From positions 288,001 to 352,000 of the forward strand of contig CALSNU010000004.1 of assembly GCA_943787795.1 (NCBI GenBank): DNA of 64,000 nt, in the 5' to 3' direction. This document shows positions 1 through 7,395 of the stretch, piece after piece. Origin of the DNA: an uncultured bacterium. GTDB taxonomy: Bacteria; Planctomycetota; UBA1135; GCA-002686595. Position 1 is the first letter of the stretch. Every line of letters starts with the position of its first letter. The notes under the pieces were generated by a model. It was given only the letters and a program-made list of their open reading frames with translations. It was not told the origin of the DNA and ran no database searches. A program made the position numbers and the translations under genes.

Positions 1-2
1 CC

Positions 3-2000
3 TCGCCTCACGCCGACACGTTCGGGTACTCGATGCCGCCCCCCGGTCTCCTGAGGCTCGGGGGAGCGCTTCGGGACGCCAACCACGACGTGGCCCTCGA
101 GGACCTTGCCTTCCGGCTGGGAAGCGGAGAGCTCCCCTCAGGGGACGGCCTCCCCGCCGCAGCCGCGGCGCTCCTGGCGAGCCGCGGACGTCCAGACGTG
201 GTCGGCCTGTCGGTCATGGGCGCCACCTTGCCCGTCGCCCTGCTGATCGCTGAGCAGCTGAAGGAGGCCTGGCCAAAGGTCCCGATCGTGCTCGGCGGCC
301 CAGGAGTCCACGGGGTCGACGTGGGCCTCCTCGAGCGCTTCCCGGCGATCGATCTCGTGGCCCGAGGCGAGGGTGAGGTCACCGTGGTCGAGCTCTGCGA
401 AGCGCTCACCAGCGGCCTGGAGGCCGCCGGCGAGGTCGACGGCATCACTCACCGGACCGCTGGCGAAGTCCGCCGCACTCCAGACCGAGCCATGCTCCGA
501 GACCTGGCGGCGCTGCCCGCCTACGCCTGGGACCTGCTGCCCCCCATCGCCAGGTACAAGGAGATCACGGGCAGCGCCGACGGCCTGGTGCCCATCGACT
601 CCGGTCGCGGCTGCGCGTACGACTGTTCGTTTTGCTCGATCGGACGCACCTGGCGCCGGCGATCCCGCCCGCTCCCGGCCGCCCGCCTCGTCGACGAGAT
701 CGCTTCCCTGCGGGGCATCCCCGGAGCGCGCCGCGCCTACCTCTGCCATGACCTCTTCGGCGCCGACCGAGGCCACGCCATGGCGCTCTGCGCCGGGCTT
801 CAGGAGCGCGCGATTCAGGTGCCCTGGGAGGTTCGGGCGCGCGCTGATCACCTCGATGCCGAGCTCCTCTTGAGCATGGGCAAGGCCGGCTGTGACCGCG
901 TGCTCCTCGGGATCGAATCCGCCTCCGCCGCGGTCCGGGCCGCCAACCAGAAGGGCATGCGCGATGATGTCGACCTCCTGCAGGTGGTCGACGATTGCGC
1001 CGCGGCCGGGGTGACCCCCATCCTGTCCCTGATCCTCGGCCTGCCGGGCGAGGGCGACGGGGAGCTGAACGAGTCGCTCGAGTTCTGCGCCTCGGCTGCG
1101 CTGCGAGCGGGGGTCAACCTCTCCCTCCATCTCGTGAATCCGCAGCCCGGCTGCGCCCTCGGAGAGGAGTTCGGAGCCGCGTCAAGTCCAGTTCCAGGCG
1201 TACCCCCAGACATGGCGCTGGGAGCCGGAGAGACCGCCGCAGAGCGAGCCCTGATTCATGGGCATCCGGACATCTTCTCGACCTGGTCCCTCCTGCCCTA
1301 TCCCGAGGAGAAGCTCGCGGAGCTCATGTTCCTGAGCGGGGAGTTCGGCGAGACGCTGATGCGCTACCCCCGAGCCGTTGGTGCGCTGGCCGCCGCCACG
1401 GGGCTCTCGATTCTCACGCTCGCGCGTGAACTCCGCGCGGACGGCCGGACCTTCGAGACGTTCGCTCGTCAGCGCGTGGCCAGGTCAGACGGGCGCCCGA
1501 TCCTCGACGCCCTCCTGCGCTGGGAGAACGCCTTGGTTCGCATCGCCGCCCGGGGGCCGCGACCGGCCCGGGATCATCGCTGGACCCTGGGCGCCGAGCT
1601 GATATCGACCTCGCTGGACCTCGGCGCCGCCGTCGAGACCCTCATCAGCCGGCGCCGCGGCGCGCCGCCTGGCCCCGCAGTCGAACCAGAGGCCAGCCCG
1701 TTGCTCCTCAGTCAAGAAGAGATGACCTTCGCAGTGGTCGCTCCCACCCCGTCCCCTGGGCGCCTCGCCGGCGTCCGGACGGTGCGACTGTCCAAGGGCT
1801 CTGCCAAGCTGGCCCAGGCTATGGAGCGCGCGCGCACCGACGAGGAGCACGCGCGCATCACTGCGGCCCTCGAGGCCCCCGGCGTCCGAGGCGCCGCCGC
1901 AGGGCTGATCGAGTCCGGCGTCCTCATCCCGCCCAGAGGCGCGGGCACCTCCACCCCGAGCTCCCACGCTCGGCAGAACTCACCGACCACGGCGCCATGA
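3..2000 (+). CDS. Cobalamin (B12)-binding radical SAM protein 1, 5'-truncated by the window edge
   Basis: Frame is open from position 3 (SPHADTFGYSMPPPGLLRL...). B12-binding Rossmann segment PDVVGLSVMG...PIVLGGPG; CxxxCxxC motif GRGCAYDCSFC at 612-635; LLGIESAS and LILGLPGE radical SAM motifs; long C-terminal extension. Confidence 0.9.
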   Translation, partial: SPHADTFGYSMPPPGLLRLGGALRDANHDVALEDLAFRLGSGELPSGDGLPAAAAALLASRGRPDVVGLSVMGATLPVALLIAEQLKEAWPKVPIVLGGPGVHGVDVGLLERFPAIDLVARGEGEVTVVELCEALTSGLEAAGEVDGITHRTAGEVRRTPDRAMLRDLAALPAYAWDLLPPIARYKEITGSADGLVPIDSGRGCAYDCSFCSIGRTWRRRSRPLPAARLVDEIASLRGIPGARRAYLCHDLFGADRGHAMALCAGLQERAIQVPWEVRARADHLDAELLLSMGKAGCDRVLLGIESASAAVRAANQKGMRDDVDLLQVVDDCAAAGVTPILSLILGLPGEGDGELNESLEFCASAALRAGVNLSLHLVNPQPGCALGEEFGAASSPVPGVPPDMALGAGETAAERALIHGHPDIFSTWSLLPYPEEKLAELMFLSGEFGETLMRYPRAVGALAAATGLSILTLARELRADGRTFETFARQRVARSDGRPILDALLRWENALVRIAARGPRPARDHRWTLGAELISTSLDLGAAVETLISRRRGAPPGPAVEPEASPLLLSQEEMTFAVVAPTPSPGRLAGVRTVRLSKGSAKLAQAMERARTDEEHARITAALEAPGVRGAAAGLIESGVLIPPRGAGTSTPSSHARQNSPTTAP

Positions 2001-4300
2001 TCAAGCTCCCCAGCAACGACTTCCCCGTCACCCTCGCGTTCCCTCCGCAAGGACACTGGACCCAACCTCACCTGGCGCTCCCCTGCCTGAAGGCGTGGCT
2101 GCAGGCGAGCGGCTACGGGGATGTTCAGCAGATGGACCTCTCCGTCGAGGCCTTCGACCACTTCCTCACTGCGGAGTCATTGACGCGAGCCGCGGCCAAG
2201 GTCGAGCAGCGACTCCCCCTGGATCGCTTCGAAGGAGACCGCCTCCCCCTCGGCCAGATGCGAGCCTGGCGTGCCGCGGCCGAGAGCGCGGCCTCTGCGG
2301 CGTCGCTCATCAGCCGCGTCGAGTCCGCGAAGGCCATCCTGAGGGGGCAGGACCACCCAGTGGAGGGCGACCGTGGCTTCTGGGACCCCGACCGCTATGT
2401 CCCCGCCGTTCGGACCCTCTACCACGGGCTTCGGCTGGTCTCTGCGGCCCACTACCCGAGCGAGCTCACCCCCCACAACTTCACGATGTCCTACTCGAAC
2501 GACTCGAGTGAGGAGGTCCTGGCGGCCACTCTGGACGAGGAGCAGAACCCCTTCATCGAGTTCTACCGTGAGGAGGTGATGCCGCGGCTCCTCGAGCGTA
2601 AGCCGCGGCTGCTCGGGCTCTCGGTCCTCTACGGCAGCCAGCTCATTCCGGCGCTGACCCTCGCGCGGATGGTGAAGGCCGCGCTCCCCGACTGCCACAT
2701 CACCATGGGCGGCGGCTTCCTCGCTTACATCGGGGACAAGGTCATGTCAGCCCCGGGTATGGCCGAGTGCTTTGACTCGATGGTGTTCCATGAGGGGGAA
2801 CGACCCCTCCTGATGCTCTGCGAGGCGCTCCGGCTCGGCGAGCCCCTCCACGACGTGGGGAGCCTCTCCTGGTGGGACCGCGCAGACCCGCAGCACCCAG
2901 TGTCCGTCAAGAACATGGCCGCGCACCCGATCAAGCTGGACGACGCCCCGGCCCCGGATCTCGACGGGCTGCCGATGGACAAGTACTTCTCGCCAGAGGT
3001 GGTCATCCCCTACGACGTGAACCGGGGCTGCTATTACGGCGAGTGCACGTTCTGCACCCTCCCGACGGTCATCGGCCCGGGATACCGCACACGCTCCTCG
3101 GAGACGATCGCGCGCCACGTGGTCGAGCTGCGCGACCGCTACGAGTCGACCCACTTCAACTTCATCACGGACTGCATGCCCCCCGGGATGATTAAGGAGC
3201 TGCCCGAGCGGTTGATCGAGGCGGAGGCTGGCATCACCTGGTGGGCGGACGCCCGCTTCGAGCCCAAGGCCTATGACGCAGATGGCGCGAGGCGGCTCTT
3301 TGAGTCAGGGTGCCGCAAGCTCCTGTTCGGCTTTGAATCCGCGACCAAGCGGATCCTCAAGATGATGATGAAGGGCCAGAGCCTGAAGTCCGTCGTCGAG
3401 GTCGCCCGGAACTGCACCGAGGCGAACATCAGCGTGACGTTCTACGCGATGGTGGGCTTCCCCACGGAGACCCGCGAGGAGGCGCGCGCGACGCTGGAGT
3501 TCATCGAGCAGCACGCCGACATCATCCGCGAGGTTTCCTTGCAGACCTTCCACATCGACGAGGTGGCGAAGACCTACAAGGAGCCCGAGCAGTTCGGGAT
3601 CCGCGTCCTCGACGCCCCAGGGGACCTCGCCCTCTACCACGACTATGTGGCCGACGTCGGGATGACCCAGGAGGAGGCCGCGGAGATGTTCGAGGAGATG
3701 ATGGCGTCCTTCCGGCGTAACCTCGCGATCTTCTCCGGTGACAACATCTTCTACTTCATGCAGAAGAGTCACTACTTCCTCCACCTCGCCGCGGGTGAGA
3801 CCCCCCAGGGGTTCTCCGGGCGCTGCGCTGACCGCACGGCCGCTAGAGCGGAGCGGGTGGCTGACCCCGAGCTGACCGTGAGCCAGGGACTCGTCAGCGT
3901 CCCCCTCAGCTTCAGCCACTCGGACGCGGTGCGCACCCTCGGAGACCCCCTCGCCCGCGCCGCCCGTCCGGACTTCCTGACCGGGCGTTACGTCCGGGAC
4001 GCGGACCGGGTCGCCGAGGAGACGCTCCCTCCCCTCGATCCAAAGGAGCGCTTCCTGCTCTATGACCCCGAGAACGGCGAGTTCGTTGAGCTCCGCGATG
4101 GCGGGGTCCGCGTGCTCTCCGCCCTGCGCGAGCACGGTACCCTCGGGGCGCTGGTAGCGGCTCAGCGGCGCGCCGGCGCCTCGGCTGCAGCCATCGATAG
4201 ACTCGAGCAGTTCGCCACCGAACTCCACCGGCTCGGAGTGCTCCGCGCCGCGGCCCCTCTTTCCCCCAACGCGCCTGTCCTCGCCACCGCGCGGGGTTGA
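1997..4300 (+). CDS. Cobalamin-binding radical SAM protein 2 with C-terminal PqqD/RRE-like domain
   Basis: ATGA overlap with the upstream stop. N-terminal FPP...PHLALPCLKAWL, B12 domain (LLGLSVLYGSQ...ITMGGG), cluster motif NRGCYYGECTFC (CX4CX2C), LLFGFES and MVGFPTET motifs. C-terminus FLLYDPENGEFVEL...FATELHRLGVL resembles an RRE. Confidence 0.9.
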   Translation: MIKLPSNDFPVTLAFPPQGHWTQPHLALPCLKAWLQASGYGDVQQMDLSVEAFDHFLTAESLTRAAAKVEQRLPLDRFEGDRLPLGQMRAWRAAAESAASAASLISRVESAKAILRGQDHPVEGDRGFWDPDRYVPAVRTLYHGLRLVSAAHYPSELTPHNFTMSYSNDSSEEVLAATLDEEQNPFIEFYREEVMPRLLERKPRLLGLSVLYGSQLIPALTLARMVKAALPDCHITMGGGFLAYIGDKVMSAPGMAECFDSMVFHEGERPLLMLCEALRLGEPLHDVGSLSWWDRADPQHPVSVKNMAAHPIKLDDAPAPDLDGLPMDKYFSPEVVIPYDVNRGCYYGECTFCTLPTVIGPGYRTRSSETIARHVVELRDRYESTHFNFITDCMPPGMIKELPERLIEAEAGITWWADARFEPKAYDADGARRLFESGCRKLLFGFESATKRILKMMMKGQSLKSVVEVARNCTEANISVTFYAMVGFPTETREEARATLEFIEQHADIIREVSLQTFHIDEVAKTYKEPEQFGIRVLDAPGDLALYHDYVADVGMTQEEAAEMFEEMMASFRRNLAIFSGDNIFYFMQKSHYFLHLAAGETPQGFSGRCADRTAARAERVADPELTVSQGLVSVPLSFSHSDAVRTLGDPLARAARPDFLTGRYVRDADRVAEETLPPLDPKERFLLYDPENGEFVELRDGGVRVLSALREHGTLGALVAAQRRAGASAAAIDRLEQFATELHRLGVLRAAAPLSPNAPVLATARG

Positions 4301-4314
4301 CCCAAGGACCAGCC

Positions 4315-4491
4315 ATGAATCAGAACAAGGATCAGCGAGACGACCTCGAGAACGAGGAGGCCCCGGAGAAGAGCGCCGAGGCGAGCCAGGCCGCAGGCGG
4401 CGAAGCCCTCGACCTCGAGGGGCTTGACCTCACGGTCGAGACCGTCGAAGAGCGGATCAGTCCGAGCGAGACCAACGTCTTCGACAAGTGA
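4315..4491 (+). CDS. Putative RiPP precursor or scaffold peptide, 58 aa, acidic
   Basis: AAGGA RBS at 4304-4308 and ATG at 4315. Sequence MNQNKDQRDDLENEEAPEKSAEASQAAGGEALDLEGLDLTVETVEERISPSETNVFDK, with host-like codon usage, directly after two radical SAM genes. Confidence 0.75.
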   Translation: MNQNKDQRDDLENEEAPEKSAEASQAAGGEALDLEGLDLTVETVEERISPSETNVFDK

Positions 4492-4593: not shown

Positions 4594-5874
4594 CTAGACC
4601 GTGACGCCGAGGTGCGTCGCCGTGTGCCCGGGGAAGAGCGGTCCGGCGTCCGGGCTCCCGAGCCGTCGCTCGGCCACCTCGGCCAACACGTCCCGGTAGT
4701 CGATGGTGACGTCGAGGTCCCCCTCGTTGAGACTCGACGGGGCGAGCCCAGGCCATTGGGTCATGACCCGGCCGCCGGCGATCCCGTCCCCCATGAGGAA
4801 CATCGCGTTTCCGAACCCGTGGTCGCAGCCGTCGCTGAGGTTCGGCGCGATCCGGCGCCCGAACTCCGAGTGCGCGACGAGGGTGTACCTGATCCCTGAG
4901 TTCCTAAGGTCCAGATAGAAGGCCTCGAGGGAGCGGGCGAAGGTGTCGAGCATGCCGGCGTAGGTGCCGCTCAACGGTCCCATCTGGACGTGATGGTCCC
5001 AGCCGTCGATGTCGACGACGCAGCACTCGAGGTCGAGGCCCGCCTTGAGCATGGTCGCGACGGCCCGGAGGCCGCCGCCGAAGGGGCCGCCGGGGTAGAC
5101 CGCGCCGTTCGACGGGGTGTAGCCGAAGAACTGAACTCCGCCCACCTGGTCGAGGGCATCGAGCGCGCTGACGGCCGCGGGGCCGAGGGGAGCCGGCTGG
5201 GGCCCGTACATGTCGGCCAGGACCTGCCGCCTGTCGGTCGCGGTGGCGGCCTCCCCGGGGAACGAGAAGGTCGGCGGGACGGCGATCGGGATCGACCCCG
5301 GCGCACCGGTGAGCGTCCATGGCAGCAGCGCCGAGAGCGAGAGCGCCCGGACCGTCCCGCTACCCAGGGGCTGAATCGTATCGAGGTGCCGCGAGACCCA
5401 GCCCTCGGAGAGCGGGAGCGCGCTCCCCGCCGGCGTCGCCGTCTCCCAACGCCGCATGCCGTCGAAGTGCGAGAGCGTATGAACCGGTGCGCCCGCGGCG
5501 TGGACCACCAGGAGCTTGCCGTCGGCGTAAGGGGTGTGGAGCGGCGCGGCCGAGGGCGAGAGACAGAAGGTCCCGTCCAGGTCCACCGAGCCGTTCCCAG
5601 ACGAGGGGCCAGGGATCGCAAGCGGACCGCGCGACGAAGCGTAGTCCGGGTCGCCGTAGGGGACAACGGCGCTGAGGCCGTCCATGCCTCCACGGAGGAA
5701 CACGTTGACCAGGACGTCTCGCTGCACTCCGCCGCCGCTCCCGCGGTTGGCGCTGAAGGCGATCCGGGGCATCGCCGAGGACACAGCGGCGCCCGCCGCC
5801 GCTGTCCTCAGGAAGCCTCGCCTGGAGAGGTTGGCGTACTCGGAGCACGCCGCACGTTCACTTCGTCGTGTCAT
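4594..5874 (-). CDS. DUF1501 family protein with Tat-like signal
   Basis: SRRGFL twin-arginine motif; VFLRGGMDGLSAVVPYGDPDY, GWDHH, SEFGRR, DHG and DYRDV motifs typical of DUF1501. Confidence 0.85.
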   Translation of the reverse strand: MTRRSERAACSEYANLSRRGFLRTAAAGAAVSSAMPRIAFSANRGSGGGVQRDVLVNVFLRGGMDGLSAVVPYGDPDYASSRGPLAIPGPSSGNGSVDLDGTFCLSPSAAPLHTPYADGKLLVVHAAGAPVHTLSHFDGMRRWETATPAGSALPLSEGWVSRHLDTIQPLGSGTVRALSLSALLPWTLTGAPGSIPIAVPPTFSFPGEAATATDRRQVLADMYGPQPAPLGPAAVSALDALDQVGGVQFFGYTPSNGAVYPGGPFGGGLRAVATMLKAGLDLECCVVDIDGWDHHVQMGPLSGTYAGMLDTFARSLEAFYLDLRNSGIRYTLVAHSEFGRRIAPNLSDGCDHGFGNAMFLMGDGIAGGRVMTQWPGLAPSSLNEGDLDVTIDYRDVLAEVAERRLGSPDAGPLFPGHTATHLGVTV

Positions 5875-5889
5875 GGTGTCGTCACCGGA

Positions 5890-7395
5890 TCAATAGAACT
5901 GATAGCCCGGGCTCGCGGCGAGGAGCGCGGCGGCATCCCTGAGGACCTGGTCCGTGAAGGGCCGGGCCCCGATGTACTGCTGGACTCGCGCGACCTCGGC
6001 CTCGGGAATCAACCCGCCCGCCATCTCTGCCGCGAGCCGCTGGGCCAGGGACGGGTTCGGCGCGGATCCGCGCAGGGCCGTCAGAGCCGAGGTGGAGATC
6101 GTCAGCCCTGGAAGGCCGCCGTTCAGGAGGTTGGTGGCGTACGCCCAGCGACCGTTCACGTCGCTCCCCCACGCCAGCAGCGTGTCCGGATATCCGTCCG
6201 GCGTCCCCCAGACATAGGGCCGCTGGCCGACGAGCTCGAAGATCCGCGCGGCGCCGAGGAAGTCGTCCGACGTGACGGCGCTCAGCTGCCGCAGGAGCCC
6301 TATACCGAAGTGGAAGGGCCGCTTCAGCTTGAGCCGCGTCGTCGCGGCACAGAGCCGGAGGACCTCGTCCGAGAGGGCCTCGCGGACGATCTCCCGCAGG
6401 TCGCCGTTCGTCGCCTGCCAGACGGCGATCACCCGGTCCACCGCCGCCTGCGGGGGCTCGATGCCCGACAGCCAGCCCACGAGCTTGCGGGAGACGTAGT
6501 CAAGCGTCTTGGGGTGCACCGCCAGCATGTGGAGCATGTCCAGGCCATCCTGCACGCCCCCCCCGCCCGGGAGCTGGACCCCGAGCACGGTCTTGGGGCC
6601 GAAGTCGTGGTCAGCGGCGTCGAAGTAGAAGTCGCCCGGGTTGGCCTCGTGCCAGTACTCGTACCGCCAGCCGGTGAAGCAGCGGCTGATCTCCTTCACG
6701 TCATCCTCGGTGTACGGCCCATCCACCCCCAGGGTGTGAAGCTCCATCACCTCTCGGCCGAAGTTCTCGTTGGCCGCTCCCACGACGTTCACGTCGCCAT
6801 CGAGATAGGCCGACATGGCCGGGCTCTTGGCCACGGAGACGAGGAGGTCCTCGAAGCGCCCGAGGGCGTGCTGCCGGATGGTGTCCCGGTCGTAGGCCGT
6901 GAAGAAGAGTCGGCCTCGAATCGTCTCGAGCTGGTCGACGTTGAAGTGGTCGTGCCAGAACTCGACGACGCGCTCGAGGAGCTGACGTTCGCTGAGTACC
7001 GAGCGCGCCACGCAGACCTGCTGCAGGTGCTCACACGGCACGAGCGCGGAGTTGGCGAAGTTGGCGTGCAGGTCCGGCAGCGACATCGAGACGCTGGGAA
7101 ACCGCGCGACAAAGGCGTCCGCCACCGGGTCCGGAATCGACTGGGGGTTGAGCTGCGCATCCAGCCAGGCGGCGCGGCCCGCGCTCCGGATGTCCAGAAG
7201 GGTGGCCCGCGTGAAGCCCTGGGTCGCCCGGTGCGCGAGGGCCAGATCGAGGTCCTGTCGGCCAGCGGCCCCGGGCGCGGCAGCCTGGGGTCCGACGGGC
7301 GCGGTGGCGCTCGAGGATGCGGGCAACGTCGTGGGCACGCCGAGGATCGAGCGGCGCGAGCGCGACCTTCGGATGGACGGCCGTTGAGATTGCAT
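5890..7395 (-). CDS. DUF1800 family protein
   Basis: ERVVEFWHDHFNV, SPAMSAYLD, NENFGREVMELHTLGV, SRCFTGW and PDGYP motifs; lies upstream of DUF1501 as usual. Confidence 0.85.
   Translation of the reverse strand: MQSQRPSIRRSRSRRSILGVPTTLPASSSATAPVGPQAAAPGAAGRQDLDLALAHRATQGFTRATLLDIRSAGRAAWLDAQLNPQSIPDPVADAFVARFPSVSMSLPDLHANFANSALVPCEHLQQVCVARSVLSERQLLERVVEFWHDHFNVDQLETIRGRLFFTAYDRDTIRQHALGRFEDLLVSVAKSPAMSAYLDGDVNVVGAANENFGREVMELHTLGVDGPYTEDDVKEISRCFTGWRYEYWHEANPGDFYFDAADHDFGPKTVLGVQLPGGGGVQDGLDMLHMLAVHPKTLDYVSRKLVGWLSGIEPPQAAVDRVIAVWQATNGDLREIVREALSDEVLRLCAATTRLKLKRPFHFGIGLLRQLSAVTSDDFLGAARIFELVGQRPYVWGTPDGYPDTLLAWGSDVNGRWAYATNLLNGGLPGLTISTSALTALRGSAPNPSLAQRLAAEMAGGLIPEAEVARVQQYIGARPFTDQVLRDAAALLAASPGYQFY

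Follow-up and report, generated by a model that had tools for sequence, protein, structure and literature searches.

Leader-dependent class B radical SAM enzymes encoded next to their precursor peptide are familiar from PoyB/PoyC and from bottromycin biosynthesis. The locus analysed here, two cobalamin-binding radical SAM genes (rSAM1 and rSAM2) followed by a short peptide gene, also resembles further described systems. With the TIGR03975 enzymes and clavusporin MpcB/MpcC it shares the arrangement of a class B radical SAM enzyme, leader-dependent in those systems, beside a precursor (PMC10849626). The aminopyruvatides (ApyD/ApyA) are similar in that an RRE-containing B12 radical SAM enzyme acts near a precursor C-terminus bearing an aromatic residue and Asp, ApyD beta-methylating a Tyr near that C-terminus (PMC11117315). 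In the biphenomycin-like pbs cluster the B12 radical SAM enzyme PbsB likewise works on a RiPP precursor, forming a C-C cross-link between aromatic rings (PMC12257519). The pearlins (TglA/TmoA/BhaA) offer an acidic, scaffold-like peptide modified at its extreme C-terminus, with TmoD as a B12 radical SAM enzyme acting there (PMC11002830). The unit described below resembles class B radical SAM RiPP systems in its workings, yet belongs to none of these families.

The window, the whole 64,000-nucleotide stretch of DNA that was analysed, opens within rSAM1 (1..2000, forward strand like all features of the unit), a B12-binding radical SAM enzyme of 672 residues whose TTG start lies 19 nt before position 1. 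It is joined through an ATGA overlap at 1997-2000 to rSAM2 (1997..4300), a second B12-binding radical SAM enzyme of 767 residues; the two share 27% identity over their core, and B12-binding and Radical_SAM domains were found in each, in line with the original prediction of two coupled but divergent genes. Fourteen nucleotides past the rSAM2 stop, which ends at 4300, begins a precursor-like peptide of 58 residues (4315..4491, stop codon included), with a ribosome-binding-site-like AAGGA (4304..4308) 6 nt ahead of its ATG, so that the predicted 58-codon reading frame with its own ribosome-binding site was recovered as described. The downstream DUF1501 and DUF1800 genes are convergent on the unit and mark its end, again as predicted. 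The expectation that part of an operon lay upstream, outside the window, was not borne out: in the genome sequence a membrane-protein gene of opposite orientation follows 47 nt beyond the rSAM1 start, which ruled out a larger upstream operon, and the unit is three genes only. Neither did the retrieved sequence contain the protease, transporter, PEARL or YcaO gene that might have been sought upstream; none of these, nor any other tailoring gene, adjoins the unit. A promoter and terminator scan found none, with an outcome about equal to that for shuffled sequences. Four RNA-labelled runs from one study gave patchy, flat cover that included the convergent genes; as DNA carry-over is possible in them, they were set aside as evidence of expression. 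The convergent DUF1800 and Tat-signal DUF1501 pair (window 4594-7395, reverse strand) stands beside the unit in close relatives only. About 2-5 kb upstream of the window lies a gene for a 1134-residue protein (L002:9874-13278, forward strand) that contains an extended low-complexity stretch of (AEKAA)n and KKSxKS, differing in length among relatives.

AlphaFold2 models of the two enzymes (pLDDT 92.9 and 91.6) place a B12-binding domain ahead of a radical SAM barrel with a three-cysteine motif, the class B layout. The [4Fe-4S] motif is CX3CX2C in rSAM1 (C211, C215 and C218; 612..635), invariant in 45 aligned orthologues, and CX4CX2C in rSAM2 (C345, C350 and C353; 3029..3055), invariant in 55. 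The B12-binding domain of rSAM2 scored 31.7 bits against a cut-off of 32.1 in one search and above the cut-off in another. Both models end in a domain of strands followed by three helices. In rSAM2 this domain (4049..4249) is assigned as a PqqD-type RRE from the model and a PqqD match: the window protein scores 21.3 against the Pfam cut-off of 23.4 (E 3e-4); of 49 members, 15 have a PqqD match in the tail, the strongest at E 4.7e-8, and 34 have none; and the tail is the only PqqD-like match in the organism's own genome. The strand-then-helix tail of rSAM1 (1707..1916) matched no Pfam model in any of 35 members, and its designation as RRE-like comes from profile-profile homology to the rSAM2 tail (hhalign 95%). 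A PDB search with the RRE alignment returned nothing significant, with TfuB1 at E 0.37.

We compared both enzymes with the curated models of the described families. The top NCBIfam model for rSAM1 is that of ApyD (NF050148), at 196.7 bits against a cut-off of 750; unrelated B12 radical SAM proteins score 142-209 bits with the same model (five of nine controls reached the listing threshold), the likeness is therefore generic, and rSAM1 was rejected as an ApyD orthologue. The aminopyruvatides are moreover defined as a class by an MNIO (PMC11117315), whereas no MNIO (PF05114) occurs in our unit or, with a positive control, in the organism's own genome (85% complete). The unit also carries no P450 or methyltransferase gene and its peptide, ending in D-K, has no Cys and no CBX2-3G motif, in contrast to the aminopyruvatide clusters (PMC11117315). 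For rSAM2 the top model is the RiPP C-methyltransferase TIGR03975, which matches 55/55 members at E<=1e-20 but gives the window protein only 118.5 bits against a cut-off of 281.85 (rSAM1, 93.9). MpcB carries CX7CX2C in place of the CX4CX2C of rSAM2 (PMC10849626), and our unit lacks the peptidase, transporter and DUF5825 genes of those clusters and offers a short polar end where they have a hydrophobic, multi-methylated core. The pbs system requires an MNIO, an arginase and an aromatic-X-aromatic core, none of which is present here (PMC12257519). In contrast to the pearlins, no PEARL ligase was found, and the modified residues would here be gene-encoded; the short LanB domain (PF04738) was absent from the loci and exceeded its cut-off in 0/151 genomes, a search in which control genomes also gave none. 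The prediction that this is not a described family thus held: no curated family model matched over its cut-off, and we found no description of the unit, its motif or the host lineage's RiPPs in full-text literature, which lies mostly outside subscription journals, while supplementary tables of RRE and radical-SAM mining papers could list such loci. The unit is an undescribed RiPP-like family made of known enzyme types.

The 58-residue peptide has a variable acidic N-terminus, a conserved leader box (LDL-x-V-E-x-V-E-E-R-I-x-P) and the C-terminal end ETNVFDK. Using a pattern on the last five residues, we recovered a peptide ending ETN[VI]FDK in 55 of 57 related genome loci, the two misses being contig ends no more than 172 nt from the enzyme match; with a looser pattern that fixes only the E-E-R-I-x-P box, a peptide was found in 52/57 loci and ended in SETNVFDK in all 52. 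Conservation of the peptide beside orthologues of both enzymes, as foreseen, is thus confirmed. Some of these 57 loci come from the same genomes as the 151-genome family survey below, so the two sets are not additive. Residues up to -9 are nearly invariant in the closest group (type A below), and the N-terminal half varies freely. The end motif occurs once among 81,661 stop-to-stop segments of the organism's own 4.7-Mb genome, and GC3 of the peptide (0.85) is close to that of the enzymes (0.84 and 0.89). Among 92 distinct DNA ends, synonymous codons are used at each position and all three stop codons occur; this set was chosen by the motif and so demonstrates codon freedom, not invariance. By these sequence features the 58-codon reading frame is a genuine gene. 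Its product matched nothing in NCBIfam or Pfam, and the organism's own genome contains no second copy of the precursor and no GQER-type peptide.

A survey of 151 genomes of the family found rSAM2 in 137, almost always as a single copy. Its identity to the window protein splits these into 94 genomes at 55% or above (type A) and 43 at 37-44% (type B), with 14 genomes lacking it; the two types are mutually exclusive among family genomes. Type A peptides end in NxFDK and type B peptides in (F/Y)ED[VMT]ADK, the latter found in 19/19 loci (20 were fetched, and L111, a separate cluster, was left out). Across a phylum sample, 57 of 401 genomes had an rSAM2 match at E<=1e-70, more distant outgroups included, and three further Planctomycetota families contributed type C (f63; peptide end KDRNIFDK), type D (f25) and type E (f93). 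In the last two types a pair of peptides stands in tandem, the one with an EGFxGQER end and the other with an EDIADK end; their acidic leader boxes are similar although the ends differ. In L134, L135, L146-L148, L217, L222 and L227 the EGFxGQER peptide, itself with an acid-base end (E-R), stands directly after rSAM2 and before the EDIADK peptide. A metagenome scan gave a DK peptide in 52/63 loci; nine of the 11 misses are cut within 115 nt, one is cut after the GQER peptide, and one (L192) is a true miss, with 7 kb of downstream sequence devoid of the peptide. Over the locus sets of the rSAM2 clade the peptide end was thus present in 55/57, 19/19, 15/16 and 52/63, against 0/5 outgroup loci.

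The left-out L111 cluster (L111:2316-17518; G001:C99) is RiPP-like in its own right, with three B12/radical SAM enzymes, two of them distant relatives of rSAM2, an acidic peptide of 52 residues ending in RDRGPRQAF, a PrmA/PRMT-type methyltransferase, an alpha/beta hydrolase, an agmatine/peptidyl-arginine deiminase domain and a 2OG-Fe(II) oxygenase. At L244 (G515:C14:7131-7952) the peptide profile gave two weak matches, confined to the leader, immediately ahead of a long reading frame resembling an RRE-containing membrane protein, possibly another precursor pair.

In a FastTree phylogeny of 59 rows, rSAM2 of all five types forms one clade with support 100; types B, D and E group together with support 81, and the tree does not resolve a sister relation between A and C. 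Among 1.84 billion representative sequences, a profile search returned four full-length matches above 960 bits and one protein of 1,411 residues at 838, then dropped to 654 and below, which shows the clade to be narrow. Named relatives are mostly Planctomycetota, and isolate-derived type A records come from Saltatorellus ferox (L054) and Engelhardtia mirabilis (protein P0057). Plasmid sequences yielded no full-length match, and the ESM Atlas only hypothetical-protein clusters, under 0.9. In one genome (G085) about 480 nt is all that remains between the two conserved flanks that enclose the type A cassette in the congener G030; a type B enzyme and peptide are found on another contig, whose flanks match congeners and another genus equally, so that its membership of this genome is putative. 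This arrangement is suggestive of one further event.

Over all five types the peptides share the end [ND]-[VIMT]-[FA]-D-K, fixed in spacing and free of indels; among 134 distinct ends, which were selected by this same motif, the last five residues are NVFDK in 79, NIFDK in 10, DVADK in 28, DIADK in 10, DMADK in 4 and DTADK in 3. The originally proposed division into an acidic leader and a short core of about SETNVFDK therefore stands as regards the variable acidic N-terminus and near-invariant C-terminus, but the family-wide core is shorter. That D-K-stop is the only element common to all types would also suit a peptide that serves as a carrier, on whose end a small molecule (Lys or Asp bearing a methyl group, or an Asp-Lys dipeptide) would be assembled and afterwards cleaved away as a metabolite or cofactor piece, pearlin-like though lacking a PEARL ligase. 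In types D and E the second peptide, too, is acid-base at its end, the system is near-core and single-copy, and a zinc carboxypeptidase-domain gene is convergent beside the unit in 3/3 type D loci. Three of 45 leaders resemble the ammosamide/lymphostin leader model NF033737, but the match is below significance (best E 0.035) and the window peptide gives none. Near-invariance to -9 in type A, together with the tracking of positions -3 and -5 by rSAM1 described below, suggests a longer product, and the PF04738 search given above, in which the control genomes gave none either, speaks against reloading of the carrier. We regard such a carrier as distinctly unlikely.

The two enzymes are not distributed alike. 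rSAM1 is present in 92/94 type A genomes, in 0/43 type B genomes and in 1/14 of the remaining family genomes; it is adjacent in 8/8 type C loci, whose peptides end in NIFDK, and in eight genomes of types B, D and E its profile scored no higher than 214 bits, whereas two controls gave 868 and 728. The predicted coupling of two enzymes accordingly applies to types A and C, but rSAM1 and rSAM2 are not an obligate pair, 43 genomes of the family having a one-enzyme version. This distribution associates rSAM1 with Asn(-5)/Phe(-3) and rSAM2 with the shared D-K end. On these sequence patterns, rSAM2 most likely defines the family and acts on the D-K end, while rSAM1 most likely has an accessory role on Phe or Asn, probably through C-methylation. 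With types A and C not resolved as sisters and B, D and E grouped, the link between Phe/Asn and rSAM1 may represent one or two evolutionary events, and since Phe(-3) and Asn(-5) change together, either may be the residue targeted by rSAM1. Within rSAM2 itself, position 516 holds Gln where the peptide has Asn(-5) (types A and C) and Arg where it has Asp(-5) (types B, D and E), one of four such columns.

These observations bear on whether the enzymes act on the peptide at all. It could remain chemically unchanged, as a binding partner or activator of enzymes whose substrate is something else, for example a lipid or a large protein: maturation and export genes are not clustered with the unit, an invariant C-terminus fits a docking motif too, and many B12 radical SAM enzymes, as judged from the NCBIfam neighbours, act on small molecules. 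This is hard to reconcile, however, with RRE-type tails on both enzymes, with a peptide end that covaries with enzyme content and with rSAM2 position 516, and with the tandem peptides of types D and E, which combine similar leader boxes with different ends as RiPP precursors often do. We therefore hold a non-substrate role to be highly improbable; from its sequence context, the peptide is very probably the enzymes' substrate.

Other neighbours differ between the types. In type B an ASPIC/UnbV FG-GAP protein occupies the place of rSAM1, often overlapping the rSAM2 start (e.g., L096:10782-12518, reverse strand), and has, by eye, a lipoprotein-like N-terminus. An orthologue occurs in 40/151 family genomes, all 40 of them type B (40/43), and five genomes representing type B (f3) and types C, D and E yielded none at the orthologue level. 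This type-B-confined coupling to rSAM2 is a lead on the function of a poorly understood protein family. In type C a beta-propeller sensor kinase and/or a LuxR regulator lies between the enzymes and the peptide in 5/8 loci. A gene for a lipoprotein-like protein of about 630 residues, divergent upstream of 26 type A loci, was rejected as a component, as it occurs in 135/151 genomes whatever their type, including some without rSAM2. This unannotated, near-core protein (L056:220-2103, reverse strand; the organism's own copy G000:C1:1015249-1017144, reverse strand) has a repeated D-x-N-G-D-G-D and no Pfam match. In many type A loci (L049, L055-L057, L064 and L069-L090) genes for a multiheme cytochrome c and a VWA protein, together with a putative nuo operon going by its gene lengths, are found 3' of the peptide; this arrangement is probably synteny.

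As to the chemistry, Foldseek placed cobalamin-dependent methyltransferases at the head of both lists, with TsrM leading for rSAM2 and TokK and CysS for rSAM1. In a wider structural search with rSAM2, AprD4 (Z 22.9), TsrM (22.5), OxsB (22.3) and MgmA tie at Z 22.3-22.9, and because AprD4 and OxsB are non-methylating, the fold does not decide the chemistry. These ties lend some support to a different outcome on the same leader-bound substrate, in which rSAM2 would carry out non-methyl radical chemistry on the last five residues, for instance a rearrangement or a C-C cross-link, with rSAM1 decorating the ring. Such an outcome would suit the fixed, indel-free spacing of the five-residue end and the distance from the nearest curated model (TIGR03975, only 118 bits against 282), and PbsB provides a B12 radical SAM enzyme making a C-C cross-link on a RiPP (PMC12257519). 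The clade also has invariant residues of its own that are rare in 141 outgroup proteins (H20, Y244, W416, D418, E512, D521 and K590 among them), the polar ones (H20, Y244, D418, E512, D521 and K590) lying in or near the barrel; we infer from sequence that the acidic ones may bind the Lys and K590 a carboxylate. PbsB, however, joins two aromatic rings, whereas aromatic residues are absent from the last five positions in types B, D and E, and C-methylation is the usual outcome for the class (PMC10849626). We thus consider non-methyl chemistry unlikely and, given the peptide as substrate, methylation the probable outcome.

We therefore favour, with slightly more confidence than doubt, a minimal RiPP-type unit in which the RRE domains bind the leader, rSAM2 C-methylates the D-K end, rSAM1 adds a methyl group and unlinked proteases release the end. 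The LDL..VEERI box of the peptide would be bound by the C-terminal RRE domains of the enzymes, whereupon rSAM2, with SAM, its [4Fe-4S] cluster and cobalamin, would modify the shared [ND]-[VIMT]-[FA]-D-K end, most likely by C-methylation of Asp(-2) or Lys(-1). On the NxFDK variant rSAM1 would methylate one more position, for which the beta-carbon of Phe(-3) is the likeliest and Asn(-5) the alternative. The short modified C-terminal peptide might then be freed by unlinked housekeeping proteases; TldD/PmbA-domain genes elsewhere in the organism's own genome are candidates by presence alone.

The unit provides two cobalamin radical SAM enzymes, both uncharacterised, along with a target of five residues that is encoded in a gene and possibly new radical chemistry on Asp or Lys, and its natural variants (Phe/Ala, Asn/Asp, one or two enzymes) are a ready-made mutagenesis series. 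As type A occurs in the named isolate-derived records of Saltatorellus ferox and Engelhardtia mirabilis, a direct search for the product is feasible. Patchy distribution is the rule for RiPP clusters, and the single-copy, family-wide occurrence of this one suggests that its product may have a routine role, such as that of a signal, rather than that of an antibiotic. In a bolder and rather doubtful extension, the system would be a lineage-core modified-peptide signal or cofactor of several deep Planctomycetota groups, made by a new cobalamin radical clade through unprecedented chemistry on a C-terminal Asp-Lys, with interchangeable cassettes that pair the Phe variant with a second B12 enzyme and the Ala variant with a secreted beta-propeller partner that may bind the product. 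A RiPP unit present in about 90% of a family's genomes, in alternative versions, would point to a conserved signal or cofactor in marine and freshwater Planctomycetota.
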